A stretch of DNA of 64,000 nucleotides from an uncultured Gammaproteobacteria bacterium (GCA_964552565.1 CAZKGL010000001.1:119649-183648); one strand, 5' to 3'. Positions 1,227-42,367 are shown, counted from the first letter of the stretch. Notes: generated from the sequence alone by a model not told the origin. Numbers and translations: made by a program.

Positions 1227-1227
1227 A

Positions 1228-17844: not shown

Positions 17845-17953
17845 GGACTCGGGTGCGTCGTTGTGCTCCGCAACTGCGCTACGCCGCGGCGGCGACAAGT
17901 CGCCGGCGGCTGGGCGCAGACGTCTCCGCCCAACGACGCACCACTCGTCCCTC
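17844..17953. repeat. palindromic REP/MITE-like element, family A (copy 1, 110 bp)
   Basis: Inverted match to 39471..39559. Copy 1 carries an extra ~25-bp palindromic insert. The element is itself an imperfect ~100-nt hairpin. Confidence 0.7.
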
Positions 17954-17963
17954 GGAAGAAGAC

Positions 17964-19076
17964 ATGGGCACACTACGAAAAGCAATTCTCGCGGACCTCG
18001 TCCATTACGCGCTGCCGAAAAAGGAGGCGGAGGACCGCATGCGCGAGCTTGAGGAACTGACGCGCACCTACGGCGGCGTGGCGGTCGTGAAGACGATCCA
18101 GCGTCGCGCAAAGCCGGATTACCGCACCTTCATCGGGAAAGGGAAGGTCGACGAGGTGGCGGCGCAGGGCAAAGCGCTCGGCGCGGATCTTTTGCTTGTC
18201 AACGAAATCCTCAAGCCGCAGCAGCTGTACAACCTTGAAGAGCTCTTGCGCCCGGCGAAAATCCAGGTGTGGGACCGCATCGATCTCATTTTGCACATCT
18301 TCGACAAGCACGCGAAGACCGCGGAAGCGAAGCTCGAGATCGAGCTCGCGAGCATCCGCCACATGGGCCCGCGCATTTTCAACATGAGCGCCGAGCTCGG
18401 CCGCCAGCGCGGCGGTACCGGCACCCGCGGCGGTACCGGTGAAACGAACACCGAGGCGATGAAACGCCACTTGCGTGAACGCGAGCAGCACATCCTGCAG
18501 AAGCTCGAGAGATACCAGGGCACGCGCAACCTCCACCAGGAGCACCGCCGCCGACACCACAAGAAAACGGTCGCGCTCGTGGGCTACACAAACGCGGGGA
18601 AGACCTCGCTCCTCAACACCCTCGGCAAGCGTCGCGAGTTTGCGGCCAACAAGCTGTTTGCCACGCTCGATACTCGCGTGGCTGACGTGTATATCCCCGA
18701 GCTCGGCGAGACCGTGCTGCTTTCGGACACCATCGGGTTCATCCAGGGCCTGCCGCCGTCCCTCATCCGCGCATTCCGCTCCACGTTGTCCGAGGCCGCC
18801 ACCGCAGACCTGTTGCTGCATGTCATCGACGTGTCCGACCCGAAGTTTGGCGAGAAGATCGCGGTCGTCGAGGGCGTGCTCGACGCGATGGGCATCGCCG
18901 ACCATCCGCGCATGTACGTCTTCAATAAGATTGACGCCGTCCGAGACCCCGAACGCCTGCGCCGCGAACTCGGTGACTGCGGGGTCATCGTCTCCGCGGA
19001 GCGCGCCGTCGGCGTCGCGGAACTCAAGTCGGCGATTGCTCGCACGTTCTCCACAACCGCCCGCGTGTCGCCGTAG
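17964..19076 (+). CDS. hflX: GTPase HflX
   Basis: HflX N-terminal domain plus a G domain (GYTNAGKTSLLN...DTIGF). The start is taken at the ATG of MGTLRK. The upstream part of the track ORF lies in the repeat element. Confidence 0.9.
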   Translation: MGTLRKAILADLVHYALPKKEAEDRMRELEELTRTYGGVAVVKTIQRRAKPDYRTFIGKGKVDEVAAQGKALGADLLLVNEILKPQQLYNLEELLRPAKIQVWDRIDLILHIFDKHAKTAEAKLEIELASIRHMGPRIFNMSAELGRQRGGTGTRGGTGETNTEAMKRHLREREQHILQKLERYQGTRNLHQEHRRRHHKKTVALVGYTNAGKTSLLNTLGKRREFAANKLFATLDTRVADVYIPELGETVLLSDTIGFIQGLPPSLIRAFRSTLSEAATADLLLHVIDVSDPKFGEKIAVVEGVLDAMGIADHPRMYVFNKIDAVRDPERLRRELGDCGVIVSAERAVGVAELKSAIARTFSTTARVSP

Positions 19077-19135
19077 ACGAAGTGCGGTACAATAGGTGCA
19101 CTGAATTCCCCGTGCTTGTCCTTGTGGAGAATGTT

Positions 19136-20944
19136 GTGCGTCTCAGAAAATGTTCGTATCCCTTCATCCTCGCCGCGCTCGCGGCCGGCGTGGTGCTGTT
19201 TGCGCCCGACGCGTTCGCGCAGACGGATTCCGTCGAAGAGGTCGGCACCGCCGCGGGGTTCGGCACCGCCGGGCTCATGGAGATCGTCGGTACCATCATC
19301 TCCGTGGTGCTCGGCATCCTTGGCGTGGTCTTCCTGCTCCTCATCATCGCGTCCGGCTTCCTCTGGATGACGGCGGGCGGGAGCGAGGACAAGGTGAAGC
19401 GCGCGAAACGCATCCTCATCAACGCGACGATTGGCCTCGTCATCGTCCTCATGTCGTACGGCATCGCGTCGTTCATCTTGAACGCCATCGGGGACGCGAC
19501 CGGATTCGATGCGGACGGCGACGGAAGCTCGGTCTCGACCGAGCCGCGTTCGGGTTCGCTCGGCAGCGGCAGCATCCGCGACCACTATCCGGAGCGCAAC
19601 GCGACCGACATCGCCCGCAACACCCGCATCATCGTTACGTTCTCGGACGCGATGGACATCGAGTCGTTTATTACCGGCTACGACACGAACGACACGCCGG
19701 ACGACACGAGCGACGACACGACCGCGACCGCCATCAACAGCGACATGGTGCAGATTTACCAGTCCGGCGACGAGTCGACGACGCTCACCGACGTCAGCGT
19801 TGCGTTTACCGACGATTTGAAAACCTTCGTGTTCGACCCTGCGGAGTACCTCGGCAGCGCGACCGAGGACGTGTCGTACACGGTTTCCCTCAGCACGAGT
19901 ATCGAGACCGCGGACGGCGAGGACGCATTCACCGGCGTGTACAGTGGCGGGTATGAATGGTCGTTCGAAGTCGGCACGACCATCGACCTCGACCCGCCGA
20001 GCATCCAGAGCGTCATCCCGGTCGAGGGCCAGAGTTACGACCGCAACATCACGGTCGAGATTACGTTCGACGAAGCGATCGACCCGACGTCGGCGTCGGG
20101 GACCCGCGAGGCGGACAGCGGCTTCCAAAATATTCAGACGGTGGGCACGTCGGGCGCGCCGGAGGCGGGAACCTACGAGATCAGCAACGGCTACCGCACC
20201 GTAACCTTTACGTCTACCGACGCCTGCGGGACGAATTCGTGCGGCGAGACCATCTACTGCTTGCCCGCGAACGACAGCATCACGGTGACCGCGTACGCCG
20301 CCACCGCGGAGAGCGACCCGCCGCAAGCGGACAGCTTCCCCTACGACGGTATCGTCGACACTGCCGCGAACAGCATGGACGGCGACGGCGACGGGACCGC
20401 GGGCGACGACTACGAATGGAGTTTTACGACGACCGGCGACATCAACCTCGAGGGCGCGACTATCGAGTCGATCGCCCCGGACATCCTCGCCGAAGGACAG
20501 GCGCTCGACCAGGACGTGGTGATCACCTTCGACGACATCATGCGCACCTCGACCCTGACGAGCGACAATATTACGCTCGAAAACTACGAATCCTCGACCG
20601 GTTCGACGCACGAGATGTACTACCTGCCGCGTGCGACGAGCCTGGACAGTTCCGGCGCGGAAGTGACGTCGGATACGCAGACGCCGGTGCAGACGCAGGT
20701 GACGGTCGGCCACGGCATCTTCCTCGAGTCGGTCGACGGGCTGACGTACCTCTACGGCGTCATGGTCGGCGAAGGCGTGGAGAACCAGTACCAAAACTGT
20801 TATAGCCCGGCCGAAGGTCCGGACGCGACCGGCGGCGCGTGCGGCGTCGACGACAACTCGCCGTCATGCTGTAACGGTTCCGCCTCGTCCGAGACGTGCG
20901 ATTTCTTCCCGGACGCGACCACCACGACCTCGACCTCCTCATAA
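19136..20944 (+). CDS. secreted/surface protein with CPR-type T4SS-pilin-like N-terminal domain (paralog A)
   Basis: Signal peptide, then a two-TM hairpin with the motif FLWMTAGGSEDKVKRAKRIL. C-terminal ~470 aa is an Asp/Thr-rich extracellular region. The start is ambiguous, from the track GTG at 19082 to the GTG at 19136. Confidence 0.6.
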   Translation: MRLRKCSYPFILAALAAGVVLFAPDAFAQTDSVEEVGTAAGFGTAGLMEIVGTIISVVLGILGVVFLLLIIASGFLWMTAGGSEDKVKRAKRILINATIGLVIVLMSYGIASFILNAIGDATGFDADGDGSSVSTEPRSGSLGSGSIRDHYPERNATDIARNTRIIVTFSDAMDIESFITGYDTNDTPDDTSDDTTATAINSDMVQIYQSGDESTTLTDVSVAFTDDLKTFVFDPAEYLGSATEDVSYTVSLSTSIETADGEDAFTGVYSGGYEWSFEVGTTIDLDPPSIQSVIPVEGQSYDRNITVEITFDEAIDPTSASGTREADSGFQNIQTVGTSGAPEAGTYEISNGYRTVTFTSTDACGTNSCGETIYCLPANDSITVTAYAATAESDPPQADSFPYDGIVDTAANSMDGDGDGTAGDDYEWSFTTTGDINLEGATIESIAPDILAEGQALDQDVVITFDDIMRTSTLTSDNITLENYESSTGSTHEMYYLPRATSLDSSGAEVTSDTQTPVQTQVTVGHGIFLESVDGLTYLYGVMVGEGVENQYQNCYSPAEGPDATGGACGVDDNSPSCCNGSASSETCDFFPDATTTTSTSS

Positions 20945-20953
20945 CGTACGGCC

Positions 20954-23900
20954 ATGTCACGCTTCCGACTTCGCCATGTCCTGCCATTCCTCGCCGGTCT
21001 TTCCTTGATCGGCGTGTTGGCGTTTACGCCGGACCTTCTTGCGCAGAGCGAAAGCCTGACGGAGGTCGGCGATGCATCGGGTCTCGGCAGCGAGGACCCG
21101 CGTATCATCATCGCCAACATTATCCGGACGTTCCTGACGGTCCTCGGCGTTCTTGCGGTGCTCATCGTCCTCTACGGCGGCTGGGTGTGGATGACGGCGG
21201 GCGGGAATGCGGAGAAGGTCGAGAAGGCGAAGAAGATCCTCATCCGCGGCGGTATCGGCATCGCGATTATCCTCATGTCGTGGGCCATTACGACGTTTGT
21301 CATTACGGCGCTTCTTGATTCGACCGGCGGGAGCGGCGGGAGCGGCGACGACAGCGATGGTTCGGGCGGCGGCGTCCTCGGCGGCGGCAGTACGACGAGT
21401 TTCAGCGTGACCGACTACTCGCCGGAAGGCGCGGTGTCCATCCGCAACGTCCAGCTGCGCGTGACGTTCTCAAAGACGCTCGACGACGAGACGGTCGAGG
21501 GCAACATTGTCGTGACGAACGCGTCGAGCGGGGAGGCAGTGGACGGCGCCATTACCGTCAGTGGGAACAAGGCGACGTTCGTCCCGAGCGCGGCCTGCCC
21601 GTCGCCCAACGAAGACCGTTCCTGTTTTGACGCGGACACGGAATTTACCGTGACGGTTTCGGAAGCCATCGAGAGCTCCTCCGGCACTGCGCTCACCTGC
21701 GGCGCGGACGACTGTACGTCGAGCTTCACGACCGGCAGCCTCGTCGATACCGAAGACCCGGTCGCGGAAATCACGGATCCGGAGCGCGGCGACGGGGTCG
21801 AGGCGGGCAGCGTGGAGACCATCCAGGTCCATGCGACCGATGACACGGAAGTCTCCGGAGCAGATTTTTCGCTCGATGAGGAGGAATTCGATTCGGTCGG
21901 CGCGGAAGGTGACGACTTGAGCGACGTGACGATTGAATCGACGTGGGACACGACCGAACTCACGGTGGGGCAGGACTACGAAATCTCCGTGACGGTCACG
22001 GACATCGCGGGGAACACGGATGGCGTTTCCGTCGACGTCACTGCGCGGGGCGCGTGGTGCTTTAACGACGAGATCGACGAGGAATACGGAGAAACGGGAT
22101 TGAACTGCGGCGGCGACTCGTCGAGCGCGGAGTATTGCGGCGCATGCGACGGTTCGAGCTGTACCGAGGATTCAGAATGTTCCAGCGGCAGCTGTGTCGA
22201 CGGCGTCTGTACCACCTTGCCGGAGATCGAGAGCGTCTCGCCGGGCAGCGGCGCGGTCGGGACGTACGTCACGGTCAGCGGCTCCGGCTTCGGCACGAGC
22301 ACGGGGACGGTGGCGTTCACATCGGAGGACGGGACCACCACGGTCGAAGCCGACATCCCGTCGTGCAGCGACGGCTGGTCGGACACCGAGATCGTCGTCG
22401 AGGTGCCGGAGGGCGCGGGCGACGGCCCGATTACCGTGACGACGGACGATGACCTTTCCGACGCGACGGACGATGACGCGGGCGCGCTCATCGACGATTT
22501 TGACGTGAACGATACCGAGCGGCCGAAGCTATGCTCGCTCTTCCCGGACGAAGGCGAGTCGACCGACGGGACGACGCTCTCCGGTTTGGACTTTGGCGAC
22601 GAGCAGGGGAGCTCGACCGTGTCGTTCGGGACGTCCGCCGCCGGCTCGTATACGAGCTGGGAAGACACGTCGGCCAGCGTCACCGTCCCGGCCTTGGAGG
22701 ACGGTGAGTATGACGTGGTCGTGACCGTCGATGGCGTCGAGTCGAACGCGGTGACGTACACCGTGGAAGAGGACACGACCGGCGACCCGGTGATTACCGG
22801 CATCGACCCGTCCGAGGGCGCGGTCGGCGACTACATCACAATCAGCGGTGAAAACTTCGGCATCCTCGTCGGTACCGTCCGTCTTGTCGACGATGCGGGC
22901 AACGAGGCGGTCGCTGAAGTCGATTTCCCTGAGGAATGCGCGGAGGACTATTGGGAGCCGACCGAGATCACCGTCATCGTCCCGGAGGAGTATCAGAGCG
23001 GCGACGGGCTCAGTGCCGGCGCGTTTGACGTGTACGTGGTGACGCAGGAGGGCGCCGAATCGGACACGACGAGTTTTACCGTCGAGGACGGCGACCCGTC
23101 GCCGGGTATTTGTGCGATTGATCCTGACGTCGGCCTCGCGGGGACGTCGGTAACGATCTATGGCGAGCGCCTCGGGTCTGACGAGGGTTCGGTCGCGTTT
23201 TACGACGAGGACGGCGACGTGGCCGCGACGGTCGACGAAGACGGTTGGTCGAGCGATGCAATCTCGCTGACGGTCCCAAGCGGGGCCGAGACCGGCCCGG
23301 TGACGGTGACGTCGTCTGCGGGCGATGAGAGCAACAGCATTGATTTTGAAGTCTCCGATGCCGGCGCTGCGGAAACCGAGACGGAGCCGGCATCGTACGG
23401 ATGGTACTTCTCGACCGGCGAAATCCCGGAGACCCCGGAGCTGCTTGTGGAGTGTTCGGACGACCGCATCAGCGGCGTGCCGAACAACCGGTTCACGTCT
23501 GACGGCGTCTGCGTGGAGGCAATGGTGTACGGCGAATTCTCCACGGTCATGAACGAAGGGTCGATCACGGACGCGCTGACGGTGGAAATGTGTACTGCCG
23601 CCGGCGAACAGCCGTGCGACACGACGACCGACGTCACCGGCGACGGCACGCTTGAGGTATCCTCGTCGACGACGAGCACGACGTTCAGCTGGTCACCGTC
23701 GTCGACCTTTACCGCAGACACGACGTATCGAGTAACCGTCTCGACCGCCGCGATGTCGGACGAGGCGCAGGCGCTCGACGACGACGTATCGTGGGAGTTC
23801 ACGACCGCATCGTCCTCGGAGACGTGCGAGGTCGACACCGTCCATGTCGTTCCGAGCGCGGCGACGATTACCGAACAATACGCGACCGAGCAGTTTACCG

Positions 23901-26900
23901 CGGTGCCCGCCGACGGCTGTGTCGTCGTCGACGGCGACGACTATACGTGGGACTGGTACGTCTACAGCGGCGTCGCAAACCTGACCAGCGACGACGAGTG
24001 CGCGGGCGGCACGACCGACTGCACGCTTGTTGAGGCGCTTGCGGAGGGCGAAGCGGATGTCATCGCGGAAGAAACCGCAAGCACGACGAGCGGCCAGGCA
24101 GACCTGACCGTGGCGTTTACCGATCCGTACGTCTCGGATTACTGGCCGGATTGCGACCAGGCGTGCAGCAACGGCGAGATCGGGGCGAGTTTCAATACTG
24201 CGGTCACGAGCACTTCGCTCGAAACCGACGGCCGCGTCGAACTGTACGAATGCGACAACGAGCTCTGCGCGGTCGGTCCGGCGGACGAGTACGGGTCGTA
24301 TGACGTGGTCGCGACCGATTGCGACGACGATGACCCGTCGTTGTGCGCGGGGGTGGCGATTTCACCCGATGCGGAGCTGACCCCGGGGACGTATTACCGC
24401 GCCGTCATCAGCCGTCGCGTGGAAACCCCGAGCGGCGTTTCGTTGACGCGCACAAACTACGATACCGGCTTCTCGTGGGTGTTCCGGGTGATGGAGGGCG
24501 ACGCGACGTGCGCCGTCGAACGCATTGAAGTGACGCCGGTCGACGCGGTTGCGGACGCCATCGGCGACCGCCAGACCTTCACGGTCGACGCGTACGGCAC
24601 GCCGGACGCGTGTTCCGTCGCGGGCCAGCTCTTGTCCGCATCGGACTACGACTGGTCGTACGGCGCATGGTCCGACGACGGGAGCGACGCGGCAGTCGAT
24701 GTCGCGGATTGGTGGGATGTCGGGTCTTCGAGCGGTTTTGTCGACACAAGCATCGAAGACGTCCCGGAGGGCTGCACGGCCTCGTGTATCCCGTCCGGCA
24801 GCACGGCGCTCGACGCCGTGTGCGGCGATGGAACCGTGGACAGCGACGCGGGAGAAGAGTGCGAAGACGGGAACACCGCGGACGACGACGGGTGTTCGTC
24901 GAGCTGTCTGTATGAAGGGTCGGAGACGACCTGCGGCGACGATGTCGTCGATACGTACGAGGAGTGCGACGACGGCGGAATCGCGGACGGCGACGGATGC
25001 TCCTCCGTCTGTCTGAACGAGGGGTCCCGCGCGATCGGCACGACGTGCGGCAATGATGACGTCGCATACGAAGCGGACCAGGGCGGCGAGGATTGCGACG
25101 ATGGCAACGTCGTGAACGGCGACGGATGCTCCTCCGTCTGTCTGAACGAGGGGTCGCTGACCCTCACCGATGTTGGCGGCGCCGTGTGCGGCGACCTCGA
25201 TATTACCGAGCCGTACGAAACCTGCGATGACGGCGGCACGACGGACGGCGACGGCTGCTCGTCCAACTGCACCCGCGAAGGCGCGGACGGCAGCTACGGG
25301 ACCTGCGGCAACGACAGCACGGAGCAGGGGACGTACGGCGAAGGCGAGGATTGCGACGGCGAAGAATGGTGCACGGATTCCTGCACGTACGGCGGATCGT
25401 CCGTCACGTACTCCGAGCCCTCGTTCTGCGGCGACGGCACGGCCGGCCTCGGCGAAGTGACCGCCTGCGAATCGTCGGGCGGCGACGACAACACCGACTC
25501 GCTCCAGCTTGCGTACATTACCGACGACGCTGCACAGGAGGTCGATACGGACACGAACGTCGCGATTGCAACCGTCACGGTGACTGAGCCCGAGTCCGGC
25601 CTTTCGACGGACGTGACGTACACGCTGGCGTGTTCCGCCGCGACCGACACGGACTGCTCGGATCCGGAAACGTATGGCGTCGGCCTCGGGAACTGCTGCA
25701 TTGCGCGCCCGACCGCGACCCTGTACCCGAACGGCACGGATGCCTGCCGCAACGCGGCGATCTACGGCATCTTCACCCAGGAGATGGACCTCGGCTCGTT
25801 CAGCGTCACCGACACGGACGGCGACACGACGCCGCGGATGTACCTCGTGCTCGACACCTCGACGACCGACGACGGCGCGTGTCCGTACGACGACGAGCTC
25901 GCATGGCTCGGCGAGGACTCTTGGATTGCGGAGACATGGCTGCGCATCCGCCGCATCGTGACCGGCCACGCCGCGGAAGCGGCGCCGGGCGAGGACGAGT
26001 GCGTCCTGCCGGTGTCGAGTTACGCCCAGGAAGCGCAGGACGACGGGACGTTCAAGGTGCGGATGCGCTACGGCGAGGCGCTCGAGGCGGACGTGACCTA
26101 CACGCTGCGCATTGAGGTCGACAGCGACAACACGGACACGAGCAAGGACGGCGTGCTGTCCGCGGACAATGTCGCCATGTACGACGCCGACGGCGTGATT
26201 GAAGAAACATTCTCGACCGGCAGCGAAATCTGCACGCTCGACAGCGTTGTTGTGGAAGATACGGACGACGAGAGCCCGTATTACTTCTCGCAGTACGGCG
26301 AGGAGCATACCTTTACGGCAACCGCGTACTCGTACAACGGCTCGACCCGCCAAGAGCTCGAATCCATCGACGATGTCTACTCGTGGACGTGGTCGAGCTG
26401 GGAGGAGGAGGCGAGCGAGTCGGTCGTGGATGTCGCGCAGAGCACGACCACGGGCACTGAGGACGAAGCGGCGGTCGAGGCGACCGGCGAAAACGGCGAG
26501 GCGGTCATCGTCGCGACCGCTACCATTGAGGACGACGTGGTCGGCGACAGCGAGGGCGAGGAGGTGACCGGCTCGGAGGATGTCGTGGTCTACCTTTGCC
26601 AGAATACGTGGCCGGACATTACGGCGACCGAATTCCCTTGGAGCGACGACGAGGACGGTATTGATAACGGCGCGGAAGAGGGGAACGGCTGGATGAACTT
26701 CTCGACGTACTTCTGCCGCGACAGCGGGGAAGCGGACGACACAAGCGACGACCTGCCAGGCGTCAACGTCGTGTATGCAACGGATTACTCGAGCGCCGAC
26801 GACATCCTGAAGGAGTATCTCTTCGAGGTCGACGACGGCAGCGGGGACGCGATCGGCTTCCGTATCGTGTCGAATTCCGAGTACTTGGGCCCGGAACAGT

Positions 26901-29900
26901 GGTTTGAGGCCCAGGGCTTCTCGGGTTCGCCGCAGACGACCACCATCGACGGCTTCCAGGCGGTCACCGATGGCCGCACGACGTACGTCGCGGCGCCGAA
27001 CCAGTCGGACACCTCGCTGTACTCGAATATCTACGTCATTTCGTACAACGAAGGGGCGAGCGAGGAAACGACCGACCTGTACGACCAGATCCTCGAAAAC
27101 ATCTCGTTCGCCATCAACGTCGACAACGACTGCGACGCGGAGGACGGCGAAACCTGTACGGACGCATGGAGCACGCTCCAGCGCGACACGAAGCGCCTTG
27201 CGGACCTCACGACGGTCGCCGCGCTCGTTGAGACCTATGTCGACGAGAACGGCGTCGTGCCGCCGCTGTCGTCCGGTACGTACGTCCGGAGCATGGGGTC
27301 AAGCGTCTGGGATTCGTGGGGCGACCTGCTCGGCGCGGCGCTCGGCGACTCCGATCTGCCGACCGACCCGCGCAACACCTATGACGGCTGCGGCGCGGAT
27401 CCGTTCGCGTCCTACGACGAGGATACGTGCGTGAACGAAACCGCCGGCCAGTACCTCTGTCCGGAAGGGTCGTACGCCTACCATTACCGCGCGGTCGGCA
27501 CCGACGGGGTCACGCTGTATGCGGACCTCGAGTATGACGATGCGGCATGGGTGAACCCGATCGACGCCGATACGTCGGACGACATCGACTACGAGGTGTA
27601 CAGCGCCATGAGTTCCGGCGACGGCTTTACGTCGACCGCGTTCTGCGACGGCTCCTCGAGCGGCGGCACCGTGTACGGCTCGACCGGTTCGTGCGGCGAC
27701 GGCGTCGTGAACACGAGCATCGACAGCGACGGCGACGGCACGGCGGACACGGTGGAGACGTGCGAGATCGGCGAGTCGGGCGGTACTGCCGAATGGTGCG
27801 ACAGCGACCTTGCGAGCGACGGCGACGGGGACGGCGATCCGCTCAACGATTGGGACGGCTCGGTGAGCCAGACCTGCAACAGCGCCTGTACCGGCTGGAC
27901 CGACGACAGCGACGCCGAGTGCGTCCTGTGGTCATGCGGCGACGGCGTCGTGGACACCACCGACGGCGAGGAATGCGACGACGGCGCGCTGAACGGGCAG
28001 TACGGCTATTGCAGCAACACCTGCTCGTACGACGACGCGTTCTATTGCGGCGACGGGTCGCTTGCGGGCAGCGAAACCTGCGACTGCGGAGCGCCGGGCG
28101 AGAGCACGATCGTCGACCCGACGCAGTCGCGCCCCTACGGCGGCACGAGCTATAGCTGCGTGACGACCGAAGGTAACGGCACCTACGACGAAAATCCGTA
28201 CAACACCTGCGCATGGGATTGCCAGGGCCCGGCGTCGTACTGCGGCGACGGCGTCGTCGACAGCGGCGAAGAGTGCGACGGCGACACCGAGCACTGGGAA
28301 GGCAAGCTCTGCAATCTGTACTCCACTGCGGATACGTTCGGCCAGGCGTGCGAGACGGACGCGGATTGCGAGCGGTACTCGGATGCATCGCTGCCGAACG
28401 CCTTGTGCGGCGACGCGAGCAACGACGACTTCGAGGCGTGTCCGGAAACGACGGTCTGCGTCGCGGGCACCACAAGCCTCATCGGCACGGAGTGTACGGC
28501 CGACAGCGACTGCGGGACCGACGGCGCCTGCTCGGACATCGCCTACCAGACCTACCGCACCCGGACGTGCGAGGACGACGGTGCGAGTGGGGAAACGTGC
28601 GACTGGGACGTCCCGTCCCTCGGCCTCTACGGCATCTCGTGCACGGCACTCGGGAGCTGCGGCGACGGCACGGTGGACGACAATGAGGAGTGCGACGACG
28701 GCAATGACGATTCGACCGACTCGTGCACGAACGAGTGCACGGACAATGTCTGTGGCGACGGGTACCTCTACGTCGGCGAAGAGCAGTGCGACGAAGGGAC
28801 GGAAAATGGACAGGGCTGCAGTTCGAGCTACGAATCGACCTGCACATCCTGTTCGGAGACGTGCCGGTACGAAACGTCGTCCGGCGACTTCTGCGGCGAT
28901 GGCGAGATCAACGGCGACGAGTACTGCGACGCCTACGCCATGCCGTACCAGTATGCGATCAGCGTGACGTACGATGAGGCCGAATCTGAAGACGACTTCA
29001 ATCCGTTCGCCGGCGAGACGGTCGTGTGGACGTATGGCGACTCCTGTGACACGCTCGGTGAGACCGTTATCGATTATGCGGACGAGTCGGACGAGTCGGA
29101 TGTCACCTACACCTGTTCCATGATTGGGTACTGTAACGGCGGCGACAGCAGCTACGGCGGCAACGGCGACGAGTGCTTGACCGACTCGGACTGCGATGAA
29201 GGCGACTGCGTCATGACCGTCTGCGCGGATGATTGCGACAACACGTGCCCGGAGACATACGAGTCCACCGCGCTCCTCCTCACCGCGGAGCAGCCGGGCG
29301 CGACCGCAGAGACTGCGGTCGACCTGTACACGTACTCCGACAGCGGGGAAGCGGAGGTGCCGAACTCGGCGACGATCACGTTCCCTGCCTGTACCATCGC
29401 GTCTTCGCTCGTTGCGGACATCTCGATGGACAACGTGGAACTGACCGAGTACTACATCGTCTTCGTGACCGACACGTCGGGATCTATGGATGACAGCTTC
29501 GATGGTTCCCAGACGTCCGGCGTCCCCGTCGACGAGCAGCGTATTACCGCCGCGGTCGACGTGCTCCGTGAGGCGATCCAGAGCCTGTACGATGCAAGCG
29601 AAAACATGCATATCGCGCTCGTGCAGTATGACGACACTGCGTACGAGGAAACGTCCGGCGACGGCGGGCCGACGGCATTCACGGACGCCGACCAGGAATC
29701 CAACCTTCTGTCCACCATCAACAGTTACTACGTTGCGGGCGGCACGACAGAGACCGACGACGGCCTTGCCATGGCGAAGGCGCTCCTCGACAGCGAGGCG
29801 TCGGACCGCACCTCGAACGTCCGGAAAATCATCGTCCTCCTCTCGGATGGGGAAGAAAATAGCACGTCCGATGCGGGAAGCGTGGCGGACGAGATCAAGG

Positions 29901-30316
29901 CCGTCGACCTCGACGAGGACGGCGTGGACGATTACGAGCTCTACACCGTCGCGCTGACGAGCGTCGACACGCTCATTACGACCATGAACGGCTGGTCGAG
30001 CAATAGCGGGAGCGCGCTCGCATCGAACAACATCGACTACGCCTACGACGGCGACACGGAAGATGAGCTTGAAGACTCCTACGAGGACATCGTCGCGTCC
30101 ATCGCGCAGCCGACCATCGCCATCATCTCGTCCGACGGCTCGACGACCTATACGACGACCGACGAGTTTGAAGAGGGTTCCGGGGTCGACTTCCCGTGGC
30201 CGGAAGGGTTCTCGTGCGACCAGGACGACGAACAGGAGCTGCCGATCCGTATTACGTTCCCGGGCGAAGGCACGATCGAAATCAGCAATGTCCGGTTCGA
30301 GTATTGCGCCCCCTAG
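20954..30316 (+). CDS. giant surface adhesin-like protein (3120 aa): T4SS-pilin-like N-terminus, 4 IPT/TIG domains, Cys-rich DUF4215-like repeats, C-terminal vWA domain
   Basis: N-terminus is paralogous to the previous gene (WVWMTAGGNAEKVEKAKKIL). IPT/TIG modules at about 22.2-23.4 kb (VSPGSGAVGTYVTVSGSGFG). CGDGxVDxxEECDDGNxxxGDGCSSxC repeats at about 24.8-25.5 kb and 27.7-28.9 kb. MIDAS DTSGSMDD vWA domain at about 29.45-30.0 kb. Confidence 0.75.
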   Translation: MSRFRLRHVLPFLAGLSLIGVLAFTPDLLAQSESLTEVGDASGLGSEDPRIIIANIIRTFLTVLGVLAVLIVLYGGWVWMTAGGNAEKVEKAKKILIRGGIGIAIILMSWAITTFVITALLDSTGGSGGSGDDSDGSGGGVLGGGSTTSFSVTDYSPEGAVSIRNVQLRVTFSKTLDDETVEGNIVVTNASSGEAVDGAITVSGNKATFVPSAACPSPNEDRSCFDADTEFTVTVSEAIESSSGTALTCGADDCTSSFTTGSLVDTEDPVAEITDPERGDGVEAGSVETIQVHATDDTEVSGADFSLDEEEFDSVGAEGDDLSDVTIESTWDTTELTVGQDYEISVTVTDIAGNTDGVSVDVTARGAWCFNDEIDEEYGETGLNCGGDSSSAEYCGACDGSSCTEDSECSSGSCVDGVCTTLPEIESVSPGSGAVGTYVTVSGSGFGTSTGTVAFTSEDGTTTVEADIPSCSDGWSDTEIVVEVPEGAGDGPITVTTDDDLSDATDDDAGALIDDFDVNDTERPKLCSLFPDEGESTDGTTLSGLDFGDEQGSSTVSFGTSAAGSYTSWEDTSASVTVPALEDGEYDVVVTVDGVESNAVTYTVEEDTTGDPVITGIDPSEGAVGDYITISGENFGILVGTVRLVDDAGNEAVAEVDFPEECAEDYWEPTEITVIVPEEYQSGDGLSAGAFDVYVVTQEGAESDTTSFTVEDGDPSPGICAIDPDVGLAGTSVTIYGERLGSDEGSVAFYDEDGDVAATVDEDGWSSDAISLTVPSGAETGPVTVTSSAGDESNSIDFEVSDAGAAETETEPASYGWYFSTGEIPETPELLVECSDDRISGVPNNRFTSDGVCVEAMVYGEFSTVMNEGSITDALTVEMCTAAGEQPCDTTTDVTGDGTLEVSSSTTSTTFSWSPSSTFTADTTYRVTVSTAAMSDEAQALDDDVSWEFTTASSSETCEVDTVHVVPSAATITEQYATEQFTAVPADGCVVVDGDDYTWDWYVYSGVANLTSDDECAGGTTDCTLVEALAEGEADVIAEETASTTSGQADLTVAFTDPYVSDYWPDCDQACSNGEIGASFNTAVTSTSLETDGRVELYECDNELCAVGPADEYGSYDVVATDCDDDDPSLCAGVAISPDAELTPGTYYRAVISRRVETPSGVSLTRTNYDTGFSWVFRVMEGDATCAVERIEVTPVDAVADAIGDRQTFTVDAYGTPDACSVAGQLLSASDYDWSYGAWSDDGSDAAVDVADWWDVGSSSGFVDTSIEDVPEGCTASCIPSGSTALDAVCGDGTVDSDAGEECEDGNTADDDGCSSSCLYEGSETTCGDDVVDTYEECDDGGIADGDGCSSVCLNEGSRAIGTTCGNDDVAYEADQGGEDCDDGNVVNGDGCSSVCLNEGSLTLTDVGGAVCGDLDITEPYETCDDGGTTDGDGCSSNCTREGADGSYGTCGNDSTEQGTYGEGEDCDGEEWCTDSCTYGGSSVTYSEPSFCGDGTAGLGEVTACESSGGDDNTDSLQLAYITDDAAQEVDTDTNVAIATVTVTEPESGLSTDVTYTLACSAATDTDCSDPETYGVGLGNCCIARPTATLYPNGTDACRNAAIYGIFTQEMDLGSFSVTDTDGDTTPRMYLVLDTSTTDDGACPYDDELAWLGEDSWIAETWLRIRRIVTGHAAEAAPGEDECVLPVSSYAQEAQDDGTFKVRMRYGEALEADVTYTLRIEVDSDNTDTSKDGVLSADNVAMYDADGVIEETFSTGSEICTLDSVVVEDTDDESPYYFSQYGEEHTFTATAYSYNGSTRQELESIDDVYSWTWSSWEEEASESVVDVAQSTTTGTEDEAAVEATGENGEAVIVATATIEDDVVGDSEGEEVTGSEDVVVYLCQNTWPDITATEFPWSDDEDGIDNGAEEGNGWMNFSTYFCRDSGEADDTSDDLPGVNVVYATDYSSADDILKEYLFEVDDGSGDAIGFRIVSNSEYLGPEQWFEAQGFSGSPQTTTIDGFQAVTDGRTTYVAAPNQSDTSLYSNIYVISYNEGASEETTDLYDQILENISFAINVDNDCDAEDGETCTDAWSTLQRDTKRLADLTTVAALVETYVDENGVVPPLSSGTYVRSMGSSVWDSWGDLLGAALGDSDLPTDPRNTYDGCGADPFASYDEDTCVNETAGQYLCPEGSYAYHYRAVGTDGVTLYADLEYDDAAWVNPIDADTSDDIDYEVYSAMSSGDGFTSTAFCDGSSSGGTVYGSTGSCGDGVVNTSIDSDGDGTADTVETCEIGESGGTAEWCDSDLASDGDGDGDPLNDWDGSVSQTCNSACTGWTDDSDAECVLWSCGDGVVDTTDGEECDDGALNGQYGYCSNTCSYDDAFYCGDGSLAGSETCDCGAPGESTIVDPTQSRPYGGTSYSCVTTEGNGTYDENPYNTCAWDCQGPASYCGDGVVDSGEECDGDTEHWEGKLCNLYSTADTFGQACETDADCERYSDASLPNALCGDASNDDFEACPETTVCVAGTTSLIGTECTADSDCGTDGACSDIAYQTYRTRTCEDDGASGETCDWDVPSLGLYGISCTALGSCGDGTVDDNEECDDGNDDSTDSCTNECTDNVCGDGYLYVGEEQCDEGTENGQGCSSSYESTCTSCSETCRYETSSGDFCGDGEINGDEYCDAYAMPYQYAISVTYDEAESEDDFNPFAGETVVWTYGDSCDTLGETVIDYADESDESDVTYTCSMIGYCNGGDSSYGGNGDECLTDSDCDEGDCVMTVCADDCDNTCPETYESTALLLTAEQPGATAETAVDLYTYSDSGEAEVPNSATITFPACTIASSLVADISMDNVELTEYYIVFVTDTSGSMDDSFDGSQTSGVPVDEQRITAAVDVLREAIQSLYDASENMHIALVQYDDTAYEETSGDGGPTAFTDADQESNLLSTINSYYVAGGTTETDDGLAMAKALLDSEASDRTSNVRKIIVLLSDGEENSTSDAGSVADEIKAVDLDEDGVDDYELYTVALTSVDTLITTMNGWSSNSGSALASNNIDYAYDGDTEDELEDSYEDIVASIAQPTIAIISSDGSTTYTTTDEFEEGSGVDFPWPEGFSCDQDDEQELPIRITFPGEGTIEISNVRFEYCAP

Positions 30317-30324
30317 CGTGAACT

Positions 30325-31152
30325 ATGCAAGGCCTTGAAGACCAACAATTCTTTACCCCGGGTGAGCCGCAACCGCCGCATGGCGGGGGCGGCCACTCGC
30401 GGCGTGCGCTCGTCATCGCGGTTGTCGCGGTGGCGGCGCTTGCGGTCGCGGTCCTTCTCGGCCTGTACATCAAGAACCGGTTCACCGGACCCTTCAGTGA
30501 CGGGTATGGCGACGGAACCGATATTGAGGCCGACATTGCGTCCGAAGTCAGCCGGGAATGCGCGGACGCCGACGATGTCGCCGCGTGCGAGGATCGCGTC
30601 CGGTCAGAAATGGCGCAAGACGCGGCGATGCCCGAGGCGTGCGAGGGCCTCGAGGAGCCGGCATTCACGAACTGTGTCATGCTCATTGCCCAGGACGAGA
30701 TGGACGCTGCGGTGTGCAGCGCACTTGATGCCGAGGCAAAGACGTCCTGCCAGGACGATGTCGCATTCCGCCTTGCGGTCGCGAATGAAGACTACGCCGC
30801 CTGCGCCGACCTTACCGACGAGACGCTCCGCGCGAATTGCGAAGCGCGCCTGCTTTCGGTTGTCATCGCTTCCGGCGACTGTGCCGCGTACGGCGTCGAC
30901 GCGTCGGTGTGCAATGGGCAGGCGCAGCTCGACGCGGTCATTGCAGCGGGCGATCCGGAGGGATGTAACACGCTCCCGGACGAGCTCGAGGGCGACTGCC
31001 GCGATGCATTTGCATCATTGGATGCCGACCACGACGGGCTCTCGCTTGGCGAAGAGTATGGTTACGGCACGGACCCGAAGAATGCGGATACGGACGGAGA
31101 CGGGTACAATGACGGTAGGGAAGTCCAAAACGGGTACGACCCGACGAAATAA
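30325..31152 (+). CDS. bitopic membrane protein with Cys-pair region and bacterial TSP3-like Ca-binding repeats
   Basis: Pro-rich N-terminus, single TM (LVIAVVAVAALAVAVLLGLY), C-terminal DADHDGLSLGEEYGYGTDPKNADTDGDGYNDGREV. Confidence 0.55.
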   Translation: MQGLEDQQFFTPGEPQPPHGGGGHSRRALVIAVVAVAALAVAVLLGLYIKNRFTGPFSDGYGDGTDIEADIASEVSRECADADDVAACEDRVRSEMAQDAAMPEACEGLEEPAFTNCVMLIAQDEMDAAVCSALDAEAKTSCQDDVAFRLAVANEDYAACADLTDETLRANCEARLLSVVIASGDCAAYGVDASVCNGQAQLDAVIAAGDPEGCNTLPDELEGDCRDAFASLDADHDGLSLGEEYGYGTDPKNADTDGDGYNDGREVQNGYDPTK

Positions 31153-31154
31153 GC

Positions 31155-31850
31155 TTGCATATGTTCGACAATCAACCGCAACCAAATCCGAACCCGAACC
31201 CGACGCCGTCGCCGGCGCCAAATGCCGAGGACATGTTTTCCGGCTTGGACGCCGGCAAACCCCCGGTCGCGCCGCCCGGCCCTGAGCCGCGTCCGTCCCT
31301 GACGCCGCAGACGCCGCAGATGCCCCCGCCCGAGGCCCCGAATGTCGGTCCCGGCGACCTTGGCCCGCGCACCGCGCGGTTCGGCGTCGTAAAGGTTGCG
31401 CTCATTGTCGCGCTGGTCCTCGCGCTCATCGCCGCGGCAGGGTATGCGGCGTGGAAGATCATGAGTCAGGCGCCGTCCGACGACGGTGTCGTGCAGAGTA
31501 TCGACGACACGACCGACGGCGAAGAAGAGGACTCGGAAGAGACGGAGGAGGCTCCGGACGAGACCGACGGAGCACTCACCGCGCCTGAGGAGGAAGAAGA
31601 GGAGGAGAGCTCGTTGTTTGACACCGATGGCGACGGACTCACGAATGCCGAGGAGCTTGAGGCCGGTACCTTGCCGAACCGCGCCGACACCGACAAGGAC
31701 GGCCTTGGCGACCGCGAAGAGGTCGAGGTCTACGATACCGATCCGTTGGAAGAAGACACCGACGGCGACACGTATCTTGACGGCCAGGAAGTGAAGGGCG
31801 GGTATAATCCCAACGGGCCGGGCAAACTTTTTGAAGTGCCCACCGAGTAG
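31155..31850 (+). CDS. bitopic membrane protein with TSP3-like repeats (paralog)
   Basis: MHMFDNQPQPNPNP Pro-rich N-terminus, TM, then DTDGDGLTNAEELEAGTLPNRADTDKDGLGDREEV...DTDGDTYLDGQEV. Confidence 0.55.
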   Translation: MHMFDNQPQPNPNPNPTPSPAPNAEDMFSGLDAGKPPVAPPGPEPRPSLTPQTPQMPPPEAPNVGPGDLGPRTARFGVVKVALIVALVLALIAAAGYAAWKIMSQAPSDDGVVQSIDDTTDGEEEDSEETEEAPDETDGALTAPEEEEEEESSLFDTDGDGLTNAEELEAGTLPNRADTDKDGLGDREEVEVYDTDPLEEDTDGDTYLDGQEVKGGYNPNGPGKLFEVPTE

Positions 31851-31855
31851 CGTCT

Positions 31856-32914
31856 ATGTTCGACAAGGCGGCGAAACAACCTACGGCTCCCGCCACCCCT
31901 GCGGCTCCTTCGGCCTCTGGGGCGAATGATTATGTCATCCACACGATGCCGCGGGAGTTTTACGGCAAGGAGGCGTCGCTCGTCACCCCCCCTAGCCCCC
32001 CCATGCATGGAGGGGAAACTCCTCCGACACCGCCCCCACCGCCGCCCCCGAAGCCCGTGCCGGCTCCAAAGCCCATTCCACCGTCCACTGTCCCACCGAA
32101 ACCTAAGCGCTCCGTGAAGGGCATGGTGGTCATCGCGGTCATCGCCATGATGATCATCGCTGCGGGCGCGTACGCCGCGTCCGTCATCATTGCGTCGGTC
32201 AAGGAGCAACAGCGCCTGACCGAATTGGAGTTGCAGCGCGCCGAGCAGGAGGCCGAGGCCGAGCGCGAGCGTGCGGAGGCGCTTGCGGAAGCCGCTGCGC
32301 AGGCCGAAGAAGAGGCGGAAGAGGTCGCGAAGGACACGGACAGCGACGGGCTTACGGATATCGAGGAGTTGCTCTACGGTACGAATTTCCGCGAGCCGGA
32401 CAGCGACAAGGACAGCTACCTGGACGGCAACGAGGTGTTCCATCGGTATCACCCGCTCGGCGACGCGCCGGCGACGCTGCTCGACACGGGCGCGGTGAAG
32501 GTCTTCGAGGACGCGTTGTACCCGTTTACGATGTACTACCCGTCGAGCTGGAGCACTTCGCTTGACGAGACGAATATGACGGTGGCGTTCCGTTCGTCAC
32601 GGCAGGCGTCTATCACCGTCGAGTGGGAAGAGAAGCCCGCCGATGAAACGCTTGCGGACTGGTACGACGCGTCGCACACCGACCGCGCGTCCGGCGACCT
32701 CAAGGAGATCCTGACGAAGGAGGGGTATTACGGCCTGACGACTGCGGACGACCGGACGGCGTACCTCGACTTCGGCGGCGACGCGGTCATCACGCTGACC
32801 TACGATCTTGGCAGCCGGACGCAAGTCGAATACCTCCAGACGTTCCAAATGATGGTGAACAGCCTCACGATGGTCGAGGATGTCGTGACGCCGGAGGAAA
32901 CGACGACGCCATGA
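31856..32914 (+). CDS. bitopic membrane protein with coiled coil and TSP3-like repeats (paralog)
   Basis: MFDKAAKQP... Pro-rich N-terminus, TM, Glu/Ala coiled coil, DTDSDGLTDIEE...DSDKDSYLDGNEV, then a ~150-aa C-terminal domain. Confidence 0.55.
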   Translation: MFDKAAKQPTAPATPAAPSASGANDYVIHTMPREFYGKEASLVTPPSPPMHGGETPPTPPPPPPPKPVPAPKPIPPSTVPPKPKRSVKGMVVIAVIAMMIIAAGAYAASVIIASVKEQQRLTELELQRAEQEAEAERERAEALAEAAAQAEEEAEEVAKDTDSDGLTDIEELLYGTNFREPDSDKDSYLDGNEVFHRYHPLGDAPATLLDTGAVKVFEDALYPFTMYYPSSWSTSLDETNMTVAFRSSRQASITVEWEEKPADETLADWYDASHTDRASGDLKEILTKEGYYGLTTADDRTAYLDFGGDAVITLTYDLGSRTQVEYLQTFQMMVNSLTMVEDVVTPEETTTP

Positions 32915-33354
32915 TTACGCTTGAGGTCTATGACGAGCGCGTTCCCGAACCTGCCCGCCTCGGCGCGGAGCGGTATCTTGCGATCGCGCGCGCCGTGAAC
33001 GAGGCCGTCCCGGACGGTCCGGACGGCGCTATTACCGTGACCTACGTCGAGGACGACGAGATCCGCCGCCTGAACCGGATGTATCGGGGCAAGGACGCGG
33101 TGACCGACGTCCTTTCGTTCGGCTCTGGCATGCCGGAGACCGGCGAGGTGGGGGACGTCATCATTTCGTTCGCGCAGGCGGAGCGCCAGGCACTGTCGTT
33201 CGCCGAGGACGGCAGCGCGCCCGACATCGAGCTTGAGTGCACCGACCTCGTCGTCCACGGCATCCTGCACGTCCTCGGGTTCGACCACGAGCGTCCTGAG
33301 GACGCCGACCGCATGTTTCCGCTCCAAGACCGCATCGTTGAGCGCGCCCTATGA
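32911..33354 (+). CDS. ybeY: rRNA maturation RNase YbeY
   Basis: Metal-binding motif HGILHVLGFDH. ATGA start/stop overlap with the preceding gene. Confidence 0.85.
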   Translation: MITLEVYDERVPEPARLGAERYLAIARAVNEAVPDGPDGAITVTYVEDDEIRRLNRMYRGKDAVTDVLSFGSGMPETGEVGDVIISFAQAERQALSFAEDGSAPDIELECTDLVVHGILHVLGFDHERPEDADRMFPLQDRIVERAL

Positions 33355-35155: not shown

Positions 35156-35377
35156 GCCACCCTTCTCTTCGACGGGCCCGATATCTCAGCGTCATGCCCA
35201 CCCGCTTTTCCCGAATTGGGGAGGAGGGGGAGTTTTTTATACGCACAGTTCATCCACAGGCATTCGTGGAGGGTTGGGAGGGGGTGTGTTAGGCTGTGAG
35301 TACAAAATTTATCTGAGGTCAGCGAAATTGAATACATAAAGTGTTCAGTGAGAGAGGCGCGTGAACACCAAGTTGGT

Positions 35378-42364: not shown

Positions 42365-42367
42365 TGG

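Follow-up and report, generated by a model that had tools for sequence, protein, structure and literature searches.

A conserved five-gene set for pilin-hairpin surface proteins and TSP3-repeat membrane proteins beside the cell-division genes of Candidatus Uhrbacteria and its relatives

In Candidatus Uhrbacteria, a groundwater ultra-small bacterium, five tightly packed, co-directional genes (19136-32914, + strand) encode two pilin-hairpin surface proteins of 602 and 3120 aa followed by three bitopic membrane proteins with TSP3 repeats. Positions are counted in the window, namely the whole 64-kb stretch of DNA that was analysed. The set is kept beside the cell-division genes in relatives from the Uhrbacteria, Magasanikbacteria and Kerfeldbacteria, which together with similar lineages we take to be class ABY1 (GTDB), and we found no description of it in the literature. 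We propose, with a probability of about 0.5, that the five products form a constitutively co-expressed, Ca-dependent surface adhesion complex, with an exapted T4SS-pilin hairpin as its membrane anchor.

The five ORFs have a codon-position GC typical for the genes of this genome (GC3 0.74-0.87), and all of their products are acidic, with pI values of 4.05-4.39 and 15-23% D+E. The Pfam searches suggested by the first-pass annotation (T4SS_pilin PF18895, TSP3_bac PF18884, TIG, DUF4215 and VWA) all returned the expected families, and Big_5 and Big_7 also scored over cut-off. The features are collected in Table 1.

Table 1. Genes and protein features of the locus, in window coordinates
Feature	Position	Strand	Remarks
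yqeY	17398-17844	+	upstream neighbour, widely conserved
hflX	17853-19076	+	upstream neighbour, closest relatives only
Short pilin-hairpin surface protein	19136-20944	+	602 aa; maximal ORF from 19082
Short protein, signal peptide	19136-19219	+	read from translation
Short protein, PF18895 hairpin	19277-19477	+	
Short protein, Big_5 Ig-like domains	from 19577	+	
Giant pilin-hairpin surface protein	20954-30316	+	3120 aa; 126 Cys, 21% D+E
Giant, VirB2/TrbC-like two-helix hairpin	21107-21301	+	aa 52-116; loop motif WMTAGGNAEKVEKAKK
Giant, Ig-like stalk	21392-24760	+	Big_5, Big_7, short Cys-rich knot, four TIG, further Big_5-like
Giant, Cys-rich acidic repeats	24761-25363	+	DUF4215 / TIGR02232 myxo_disulf_rpt
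Giant, conserved core	26591-27598	+	aa 1880-2215; no Pfam family
Giant, second Cys-rich region	27611-29053	+	DUF4215-like repeats
Giant, C-terminal VWA domain	29456-29968	+	MIDAS motif, DTSGS at aa 2840
tsp1, bitopic membrane protein	30325-31152	+	275 aa; TSP3 unit 31021-31149
tsp2, bitopic membrane protein	31155-31850	+	231 aa; TTG start; TSP3 repeats 31620-31817
tsp3, bitopic membrane protein	31856-32914	+	352 aa; TSP3 unit 32333-32461; PsbP/Mog1-like domain 32468-32875
ybeY	32911-33354	+	4-nt overlap with tsp3
dgkA	33351-33737	+	4-nt overlap with ybeY
ftsA	33760-35016	+	conserved downstream neighbour
ftsZ	35348-36649	+	conserved downstream neighbour

The short protein had been given a start at 19082 (620 aa). 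The GTG at 19136 is most likely the true start because it is preceded by a GGAG at 19126-19129 and aligns with Met1 of the giant; hence the protein has 602 residues and lies 59 nt from hflX. It has a pI of 4.05 and a C-terminus that contains Cys. Against a gathering threshold of 26.6 bits for PF18895, it scored 28.5 bits (with the 620-aa maximal ORF scanned), and the giant scored 28.3 bits as a whole protein and 37 bits (E 3.7e-9) for the hairpin alone. These scores, together with the pairwise alignment, bear out the earlier description of the two as adjacent paralogs with a common signal peptide and two-helix hairpin. Their ectodomains had also been said to have 'diverged completely', yet over 333 aa the two proteins have 31% of their residues in common (E 9e-24), in an alignment that takes in both the hairpin and the first of the Big_5 domains.

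Translations and pairwise alignment give the N-terminal layout directly: a signal peptide precedes two hydrophobic helices, which a short Lys/Arg-rich loop connects. The loop, WMTAGG(N/S)xxKVxxAK, is conserved across 90 orthologues, in which the hairpin is the best-conserved stretch of the N-terminal 420 aa of the giant (50-59% identity, versus 30-44% for the adjoining Ig domains) and the loop is the highest point within it. PF18895 is matched by 26/26 aligned members of the hairpin family and PF04956 (TrbC/VirB2) by six of them (best E 1.7e-8), although not by the hairpins of the window themselves; searches of PDB chains, by profile and by single sequence, found no real match to the structurally solved VirB2, TraA and TrbC pilins. 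The N-termini carry ordinary signal peptides, ending AFA-Q and LLA-Q, rather than class III ones (IPR012902), and Pfam and NCBIfam scans found no N_methyl or type IV pilin family in either protein. Free small pilins of 104-143 aa share 53-61% of residues with the hairpin of the giant, and all of the nearest 24 matches to the hairpin alone are proteins of 91-206 aa; at 602 and 3120 aa the window proteins lie far outside the size of stand-alone small pilins (about 90-200 aa). Six-frame translation of the window yields just two copies of the hairpin, and their genes adjoin neither virB4 or other T4SS genes nor a multi-pilin array there. Hence the likeness to the T4SS pilins of CPR bacteria noted at first pass stands as a match to the PF18895 family, while the link to a T4SS falls back on the family name, with no T4SS gene, VirB4 and VirB6 included, detected by Pfam within the 64 kb among those called genes whose products reach about 100 aa.

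A hairpin conserved in this way could belong to true, modular T4SS pilins, which we consider a doubtful but serious alternative. The hairpin would then be a genuine polymerisation module, and a T4SS elsewhere in the genome would draw the fused proteins out of the membrane pool and insert them, in small numbers or at its tip, into a VirB2-like pilus; this pilus of small free pilins would display the Ig and VWA domains at a distance, as a T4SS counterpart of PilB. The high conservation of the hairpin and above all of its loop, the identity to free pilins and the family matches all point this way, as does the finding that the nearest free relatives sit in arrays of 6-7 tandem pilins. Fusion at the C-terminus would place the cargo outside the cell, and Patescibacteria, class ABY1 among them, are reported to have T4SSs with VirB2-like pilins widely (PMC12102498, PMC12857230). 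Moreover, conservation of the hairpin, together with an identity to free pilins that reaches 61%, exceeds what a plain anchor needs, which favours contact with a pilin-handling machinery. Set against this, the operon is bound to housekeeping genes and not to a T4SS locus, a 70-aa pilin could bear an appendage of 3000 aa only if it sat at the tip or was very rare in the pilus, the solved pilins offer no sequence link, and we found no experimental proof in the literature of a pilus made from a PF18895 protein. Of the two roles, pilus polymerisation and a permanent anchor in the membrane that was exapted from the pilin family, we favour the anchor, because the window holds no T4SS gene and two hairpins only, in a housekeeping neighbourhood.

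Beyond its Ig-like stalk the giant carries Cys-rich repeats that match TIGR02232 (70 bits, five stretches), a conserved core and a VWA domain (PF00092, 55-61 bits). The N-terminal half of the core forms a PsbP/Mog1/LpqN-like sandwich, and its C-terminal half, a helix plus sheet, is weakly like a type IV pilin head. The MIDAS DxSxS is present in the giant and in 9/10 VWA-bearing homologues, with the downstream T and D of the giant assigned by eye. At least 293 cluster representatives are related to aa 1-340 at E<=1e-30, most of them 2000-4600 aa long, and orthologues with an identical Pfam architecture span 3067-3137 aa. The relatives are colinear over aa 1-2640 and vary at the VWA/MIDAS tip: beyond aa 2700 the region is common to only about 40% of 90 homologues. 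The tip is thus missing in about 60%, which we count against a role in adhesion.

The three TSP3 proteins had been called paralogous. They do share the TSP3 unit (a double of ~44 aa) and the bitopic topology, but not paralogy over their whole length. TSP3_bac (PF18884, cut-off 25 bits) is matched by tsp1 at 27.0 and by tsp2 at 31.6 bits, with Ca2+ binding predicted; tsp3 stays below the cut-off at 16.3 bits, but its unit shares 55% of residues with the tsp2 unit (E 1e-9), and its D-x-D-x-D-G (D160, D162, D164, G165) is invariant across 31 orthologues. The Pro-rich cytoplasmic N-terminus attributed to each protein fits tsp2 and tsp3, the tail of tsp1 being simply short. In tsp1 this tail is followed by a TM helix, a helical ectodomain with 12 Cys, whose pattern is kept across 24 orthologues, and the TSP3 unit. 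In tsp2 a Pro-rich tail with conserved MFD and peDmF motifs leads through a TM helix and an acidic linker to the TSP3 repeats. The Pro-rich tail of tsp3 bears a conserved MF..D.VIH.MPKEFYGKEA, and its TM helix runs on as a helix of 70 residues. The C-terminal domain of tsp3, in a predicted model with pLDDT >90, gives a Foldseek match to PsbP/CyanoP (E 5.6e-5); it is homologous to the PsbP/Mog1-like domain in the core of the giant. Among at least 247 homologues of tsp3, one has a precomputed PF01789.

From the short protein through dgkA the genes are separated by 9, 8, 2, 5, -4 and -4 nt. The tsp3-ybeY overlap is an ATGA, read directly and as described at first pass, and the median spacing at this junction is also -4 nt in 62 relatives; the median gaps in relatives are 3, 5, 10, -4 and -4 nt. 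Separate promoters or terminators between the genes, which would have spoken against a common unit, do not emerge: promoter- and terminator-like sites are not above chance, and the terminator-like ones all lie within genes. By strand, gaps, lack of internal terminators and conserved order, the five genes plus ybeY-dgkA therefore qualify as a putative single operon. The housekeeping genes named earlier (ybeY, dgkA, ftsA, ftsZ and hflX) are all present, but adjacency to hflX is confined to the three closest relatives; comparison of loci shows that yqeY is the ancient upstream neighbour and that the position of hflX is lineage-specific.

The proposed synteny check likewise came out in favour of linkage, in that relatives keep these genes together in one order (pilin-protein, giant, TSP3 proteins, ybeY-dgkA-ftsA-ftsZ) instead of carrying them elsewhere or unlinked. 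The order giant, tsp3, ybeY, ftsA, ftsZ is found in 38/43 informative loci (those with at least 8 kb of upstream sequence), over a range of FtsZ identity from 82 to 55%, and it persists at the lower end, where the array proteins themselves have about 27% identity. An orthologue of the short protein lies directly 5' of the N-terminus of the giant in 56/58 informative metagenome loci. The gene order is absent from outgroups labelled Saccharibacteria and Doudnabacteria.

This pattern points to vertical, class-wide and colinear inheritance, which one would not typically see in adhesins for host specificity and which suits a core component of the envelope no less than a host-specific adhesin. Hence the array might instead be a structural apparatus of the envelope, S-layer-like or division-linked, in which an acidic Ca-binding giant and stalked TSP3 proteins make up a surface layer or wall-spanning scaffold, and the ftsA-ftsZ link reflects co-ordination with growth and septation and not host attachment. 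The logic would be comparable to that of archaeal stalk-plus-canopy S-layers (SlaA/SlaB), and cryo-EM of groundwater ultra-small bacteria has reportedly revealed S-layers that are not known to have been assigned to particular proteins. The occurrence of the array at a single locus in nearly all sampled lineages, colinearity of the giant over 2640 aa, translational coupling to ybeY-dgkA just 5' of ftsAZ, and a pI of about 4 with predicted Ca-binding repeats are all consistent with such a role. So are the predicted architecture of tsp3, in which the long helix would carry a globular head, and the conserved motifs of tsp2 and tsp3, which could contact cytoplasmic partners. Nevertheless, we consider this rather unlikely: Pfam and NCBIfam scans of the five proteins found neither SLH nor any further domain that binds the wall or forms a lattice, a VWA/MIDAS tip on Ig/TIG stalks is typical of adhesins, and ybeY and dgkA, which separate the array from ftsA, are not division genes. 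Furthermore, Firmicutes-like genomes have yqeY...ybeY-dgkA as an old block of genes, and therefore the position of the array alone may be historical.

That the genes are independent surface proteins packed into a streamlined genome, with an order frozen by chance, is very improbable, for although Patescibacterial genomes are compact, short gaps are common throughout the window and the TSP3 proteins have only the 44-aa unit in common, the order survives to 55% FtsZ identity, relatives keep the 4-nt overlap, a homologous domain is common to the giant and tsp3, and the same rare hairpin occurs in two adjacent genes.

In the adhesion complex that we prefer, two Sec-exported proteins would be held in the cytoplasmic membrane by the VirB2/TrbC-type hairpin. 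A cleaved signal peptide would be followed by TM1, a short basic cytoplasmic loop and TM2, so that everything C-terminal of the hairpin would lie outside the cell. The short protein would expose a few Ig-like domains, and the giant a long, very acidic, disulfide-rich stalk leading to the PsbP/Mog1-like core and, in the source organism, to a distal VWA domain with an intact MIDAS. The three TSP3 proteins, N-in/C-out, would be membrane-proximal partners of these fibres. Here tsp3 would contribute a long helical stalk and the domain homologous to the core of the giant, and the cytoplasmic peptide motifs would tie the assembly to the cell interior. Translation of the five genes as one tightly coupled unit running into ybeY-dgkA, just 5' of ftsA-ftsZ, would imply constitutive production in growing cells. 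It is the domain types that suggest adhesion, presumably by Ca2+/Mg2+-dependent attachment to a surface or to a partner cell. The partner might be a host, but Uhrbacteria are not known to be episymbionts, which counts against this reading.

More tentatively, the exapted VirB2-type hairpin could be the foot, in the membrane or in a filament, of a new, lineage-defining organelle on the cell surface of Uhrbacteria, Magasanikbacteria, Kerfeldbacteria and related lineages: a disulfide- and Ca-stabilised fibre of ~100 nm with an integrin-like VWA tip, expressed within the core growth/division operon and coupled to the cell interior via the three TSP3 proteins, through the shared PsbP-like domain outside and the conserved peptide motifs inside. 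If this speculative model is true, the organelle would serve these ultra-small bacteria as their essential means of contact with a host or a surface.

Among the closest known systems are the Patescibacterial PF18895 pilins (PMC12102498, PMC12857230, PMC10633639), which resemble the N-terminal module of the window proteins in signal peptide, two hydrophobic helices and short basic loop, reach 61% identity to it in their free form, and likewise occur as tandem paralogues. In the literature these pilins are small, and their genes either stand free, 2-11 to an array, or lie close to virB4, whereas in the window the hairpin bears ectodomain extensions of 0.5 kb and 9 kb and exists in two copies only, within a housekeeping block and with no T4SS gene inside 64 kb. 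In cultivated Saccharibacteria, adhesins and T4SS pilin arrays are essential (PMC10633639); adhesins such as PrgB were not detected in the dataset of PMC12102498.

In overall design the proteins resemble PilB of Streptococcus sanguinis (PMC8179133), a modular type IV pilin in which an N-terminal filament or anchor module carries grafted C-terminal adhesive modules, with a distal VWA/MIDAS as the adhesive one; such modular pilins occur in CPR lineages too (PMC8179133). The carriers are unrelated, since PilB starts with a class III signal peptide and has the type IV pilin fold, assembled by T4P machinery, whereas the window proteins use a VirB2-type hairpin with neither a prepilin motif nor N_methyl. 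The cargo is also several-fold larger, at 3120 aa compared with 860 aa for the largest modular pilin example cited there.

In fold, the C-terminal domain of tsp3 and the N-terminal half of the core of the giant agree with the extracytoplasmic PsbP/Mog1/LpqN/DcrB sandwich domains, which are generally protein- or lipid-binding modules of the cell envelope; at the sequence level the window proteins themselves show no such membership. Finally, a VWA/MIDAS adhesin and Ca2+-binding TSP3 proteins are combined in the gliding focal-adhesion machine of Myxococcus xanthus, which includes CglB (VWA) and the integrin-like CglD (TSP3 + VWA) (PMC9946355, bioRxiv 10.1101/2023.10.19.562135). CglB and CglD belong to a diderm, in which they are lipoproteins of the outer membrane and are coupled to the Agl-Glt motor, whereas the window has no motor genes. 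The TSP3 regions of tsp1-3 match the CglD and MtsD models weakly (17-20 bits against an equivalog cut-off of 400), and the Cys-rich repeats of the giant match the myxobacterial TIGR02232 repeat.

The five genes of the surface array, encoding a short pilin-hairpin protein, a giant protein of 3120 aa and three TSP3-repeat proteins of predicted bitopic topology (tsp1-3), are separated by 9, 8, 2 and 5 nt, and an ATGA overlap joins tsp3 to ybeY, as does an overlap of the same type ybeY to dgkA. The close, co-directional packing and the coupling to ybeY described in the first-pass annotation are thus borne out. For the short protein the probable start is the GTG at 19136: a GGAG precedes it by 6 nt, and it lines up with Met1 of the giant. 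Third-position GC of the five ORFs (0.74-0.87) is similar to that of surrounding genes. Among relatives the median intergenic distances are 3, 5, 10, -4 and -4 nt, as computed from maximal ORF starts. Scans for sigma-70 promoters (one promoter-like site against 2.8 expected) and intrinsic terminators (11 sites against 12.1 expected) were uninformative. A mobile or horizontally acquired island was ruled out, since GC and GC3 are as in the surroundings, integrase and tRNA borders are absent and the gene order is vertically conserved.

Features of the window and of two relatives' loci (window positions unless a locus is named)
Feature	Position	Strand	Remarks
Short pilin-hairpin protein	19082/19136-20944	+	ORF reading
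Giant	20954-30316	+	ORF reading
tsp1	30325-31152	+	ORF reading
tsp2	31155-31850	+	ORF reading
tsp3	31856-32914	+	ORF reading
tsp2 tail (predicted cytoplasmic)	31155-31400		alignment A2
tsp3 tail (predicted cytoplasmic)	31856-32120		alignment A2
Low-GC stretch	1-2000		GC falls to 0.50 (0.58-0.68 elsewhere)
APH-family phosphotransferase	1228-2205	-	low GC3 (0.52)
ORF overlapping tmRNA	42311-43636	+	atypical codon-position GC
tmRNA	43566-43959	-	77 bits
Stretches grouped with the Cu-binding_MopE genes	47791-48444, 56265-60273
Three tandem Cu-binding_MopE (PF11617) Cys-rich repeat proteins	50991-56038		GC3 0.92-1.0
Free pilin array	L163 5295-9332		tandem PF18895 genes
Free pilin array	L164 8541-11281		tandem PF18895 genes

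A Pfam scan of the array proteins recovered the families that the first-pass annotation had anticipated. PF18895 (T4SS_pilin) matches the short protein and the giant at 28.5 and 28.3 bits (cut-off 26.6), Big_5 is found on both, and the giant also carries four TIG domains, Big_7, DUF4215 and VWA. At the N-terminus of each, an ordinary signal peptide and a stretch of about 20 residues precede two hydrophobic helices, which are joined by a loop reading WMTAGG(N/S)xxKVxxAK(K/R). With this basic loop facing the cytoplasm, the whole chain beyond the hairpin would be extracellular. In the giant there follow Big_5, Big_7, a small Cys knot, the TIG and further Ig-like domains, acidic Cys-rich repeats (DUF4215/TIGR02232), a 336-aa core to which the scan assigned no Pfam family, another Cys-rich region and, at the C-terminus, a VWA domain with DTSGS. 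The protein contains 126 cysteines and 21% Asp plus Glu, with a pI of 4.05. The ectodomains of the two proteins had been described as completely diverged; they still have the first Big_5 domain in common (31% identity over 333 aa).

In each TSP3 protein a single TM helix separates the N-terminal tail, which is short or Pro-rich, from an acidic ectodomain with TSP3 repeats at its end. The three proteins had been called paralogues, which overstates their relationship, as only a 44-aa unit and the predicted topology are common to them. TSP3_bac matches tsp1 (27.0 bits) and tsp2 (31.6 bits), and only tsp3 falls below threshold (16.3 bits); its TSP3 unit shares 55% identity with the tsp2 unit (E 1e-9), with Asp/Gly positions invariant across 31 orthologues. 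In the structure model of tsp3 the TM helix runs on as a 70-residue helix and leads into a confidently modelled alpha/beta domain, which on this model is a PsbP/Mog1 fold; the core of the giant contains the same domain. The tails of tsp2 and tsp3 both open with MFD/MF and hold motifs conserved across orthologues (MFD... and peDmF in tsp2; MF..D.VIH.MPKEFYGKEA in tsp3), which may be docking peptides for a cytoplasmic partner.

Within the N-terminal 420 aa of the giant the hairpin is the best-conserved stretch, with identities across 90 orthologues of 52% (TM1), 59% (loop) and 50% (TM2), compared with 30-44% for the Ig domains. Compared with free pilins of 104-143 aa, its identity is 53-61%. PF18895 matched all 26 aligned hairpins, six of which also match TrbC/VirB2, and a six-frame profile search of the window returned the two hairpins only. 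No link in sequence to solved VirB2/TraA/TrbC structures was found: the sole hits of the 26-hairpin profile were designed 'Pizza' repeat proteins and are spurious, and two small pilins carrying both Pfam families gave no hit. The conservation of the hairpin supports the main rival reading, in which it still acts as a pilin and loads both proteins onto a T4SS pilus; against it speaks the lack of any T4SS component among the genes of the 64-kb window scanned against Pfam, and we consider this reading rather doubtful. Of the free pilins with inspected contigs, the two closest (P0007 and P0010) each belong to a tandem array of six or seven PF18895 genes, and both arrays sit immediately 3' of genes for an NTP_transferase and an SBP_bac_1 solute-binding protein. 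VirB4 was not called in the flanks of these arrays, which covered as much as 10 kb on the upstream side and 10 kb and about 4 kb on the downstream side.

An exhaustive HMMER search with residues 1-340 of the giant retrieved 293 cluster representatives at E<=1e-30, mostly of 2000-4600 aa and aligned from their own first residues. Over aa 1-2640 the giant is colinear with 90 homologues that measure 2500 aa or more, its last 420 aa, including VWA, being common to only about 40% of them; orthologues of 3067-3137 aa have an unchanged Pfam architecture in precomputed annotations. A word-indexed homology search with the core returned just two proteins, its candidate list being saturated by low-complexity words.

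The order giant, TSP3 proteins, ybeY, dgkA, ftsA, ftsZ, nrdR, pyk is kept in 38 of the 43 FtsZ-anchored loci whose upstream DNA is long enough, at FtsZ identities between 82 and 55% and under the labels Uhrbacteria, Magasanikbacteria, Kerfeldbacteria and 'Parcubacteria'. When metagenome loci are anchored on the short protein instead, the N-terminus of the giant begins no more than 1.5 kb downstream in 56 of 58, and yqeY lies upstream in 34 of 46. The array therefore stays linked and in the same order among relatives. This does not extend to hflX, previously taken as part of the setting: it is upstream only in the three closest relatives (L085-L087) and is thereby ruled out as a member of the unit. 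Four outgroup loci (L061, L064, L066 and L075; labelled Saccharibacteria, Doudnabacteria and Acidobacteriaceae, the last a mislabel) run from hisS...yqeY directly to ftsA-ftsZ, and the surface array, ybeY and dgkA are absent from that junction, so that the whole yqeY-ftsA block is specific to the Uhrbacteria/Magasanikbacteria side. B. subtilis has a yqeY...ybeY-dgkA block. More distant relatives can have a compact array, as in L052 with one 1459-aa hairpin protein and two TSP3 proteins. Sequence divergence of the surface proteins far outpaces that of their neighbours (giant 49% but FtsA 88% identical in L002). In several relatives (L004, L084 and L165) the interval from ftsA to ftsZ contains one to three additional genes that lack Pfam hits, part of them in reverse orientation; this interval is almost 6 kb in L004 versus 331 nt in the window.

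Near-universal vertical conservation, together with the acidity of the proteins and the predicted stalked shape of tsp3, would support a structural envelope or S-layer-like apparatus coordinated with division, a second rival that we judge unlikely. Groundwater ultra-small bacteria reportedly show S-layers in cryo-EM. That the five genes are functionally unrelated neighbours is highly improbable.

The window is assigned to Candidatus Uhrbacteria, of the lineage ABY1, on the strength of FtsZ and of an identical partial copy of tsp3, and it matches the fragmented public MAG GCA_016177675.1. The remaining genes are housekeeping (among them topA, Mur ligase, dprA, pth, der, LCP protein, lepB, hisS, HAD hydrolase, yqeY, hflX, ybeY, dgkA, ftsA, ftsZ, nrdR, pyk), followed by a polysaccharide cluster (Wzz, a Wzy_C-type ligase, two GT4 glycosyltransferases); there are two tRNAs and a tmRNA. 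The MopE-repeat genes inside that cluster are a second, separate surface-protein cluster. The ORF overlapping the tmRNA is probably not a gene, and the first 2 kb, at the edge of the window, may be of foreign origin.

We propose, with a probability of about one half, that the array products form a surface adhesion complex that is anchored in the membrane and depends on Ca2+/Mg2+. What the sequences show is the domain content, the gene order, its conservation and the common domain; topology, complex formation, co-transcription and adhesion are inferred. A short fibre and a second fibre of about 3000 aa would be rooted in the membrane by an exapted pilin hairpin, with the three TSP3 proteins as membrane-proximal partners of both, and all five would be translated from one transcript running on into ybeY-dgkA. 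The conserved tail motifs of tsp2 and tsp3 suggest an inside-outside connection, and the domain common to the giant and tsp3 provides a specific interaction hypothesis.

Much of bacterial diversity is patescibacterial, and for host or surface contact in non-Saccharibacteria lineages the array offers a concrete candidate, conserved, experimentally addressable and easily located between yqeY and ybeY-dgkA-ftsAZ. A second consequence is a broader role for the PF18895 'T4SS pilin' domain, treated in recent surveys only as small pilins. Hundreds of giant proteins begin with this domain, so either counts of 'VirB2 homologues' include probable non-pilus subunits, or T4SS pili carry modular adhesins as type IV pili do.

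Small VirB2-like pilins in arrays of 2-11 have been described in Patescibacteria (PMC12102498; also PMC12857230, PMC10633639), and adhesins such as PrgB were reported as not found (PMC12102498). These three papers do not mention hairpin-fused giants, and a full-text literature search that covered subscription journals only partly found no description of them. In design the nearest counterpart is PilB (PMC8179133), a modular type IV pilus pilin that joins a pilin module to a VWA/MIDAS adhesin, although its carrier module is unrelated to the PF18895 hairpin. The Myxococcus adhesins CglB and CglD bring VWA and TSP3 repeats together in a single adhesion machine; weak sub-threshold matches are all that link them to this locus. 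The short protein and the giant agree with described PF18895 pilins in sequence definition but differ in size and in T4SS/array context, and we therefore file them as a new architectural variant rather than as pilins proper.
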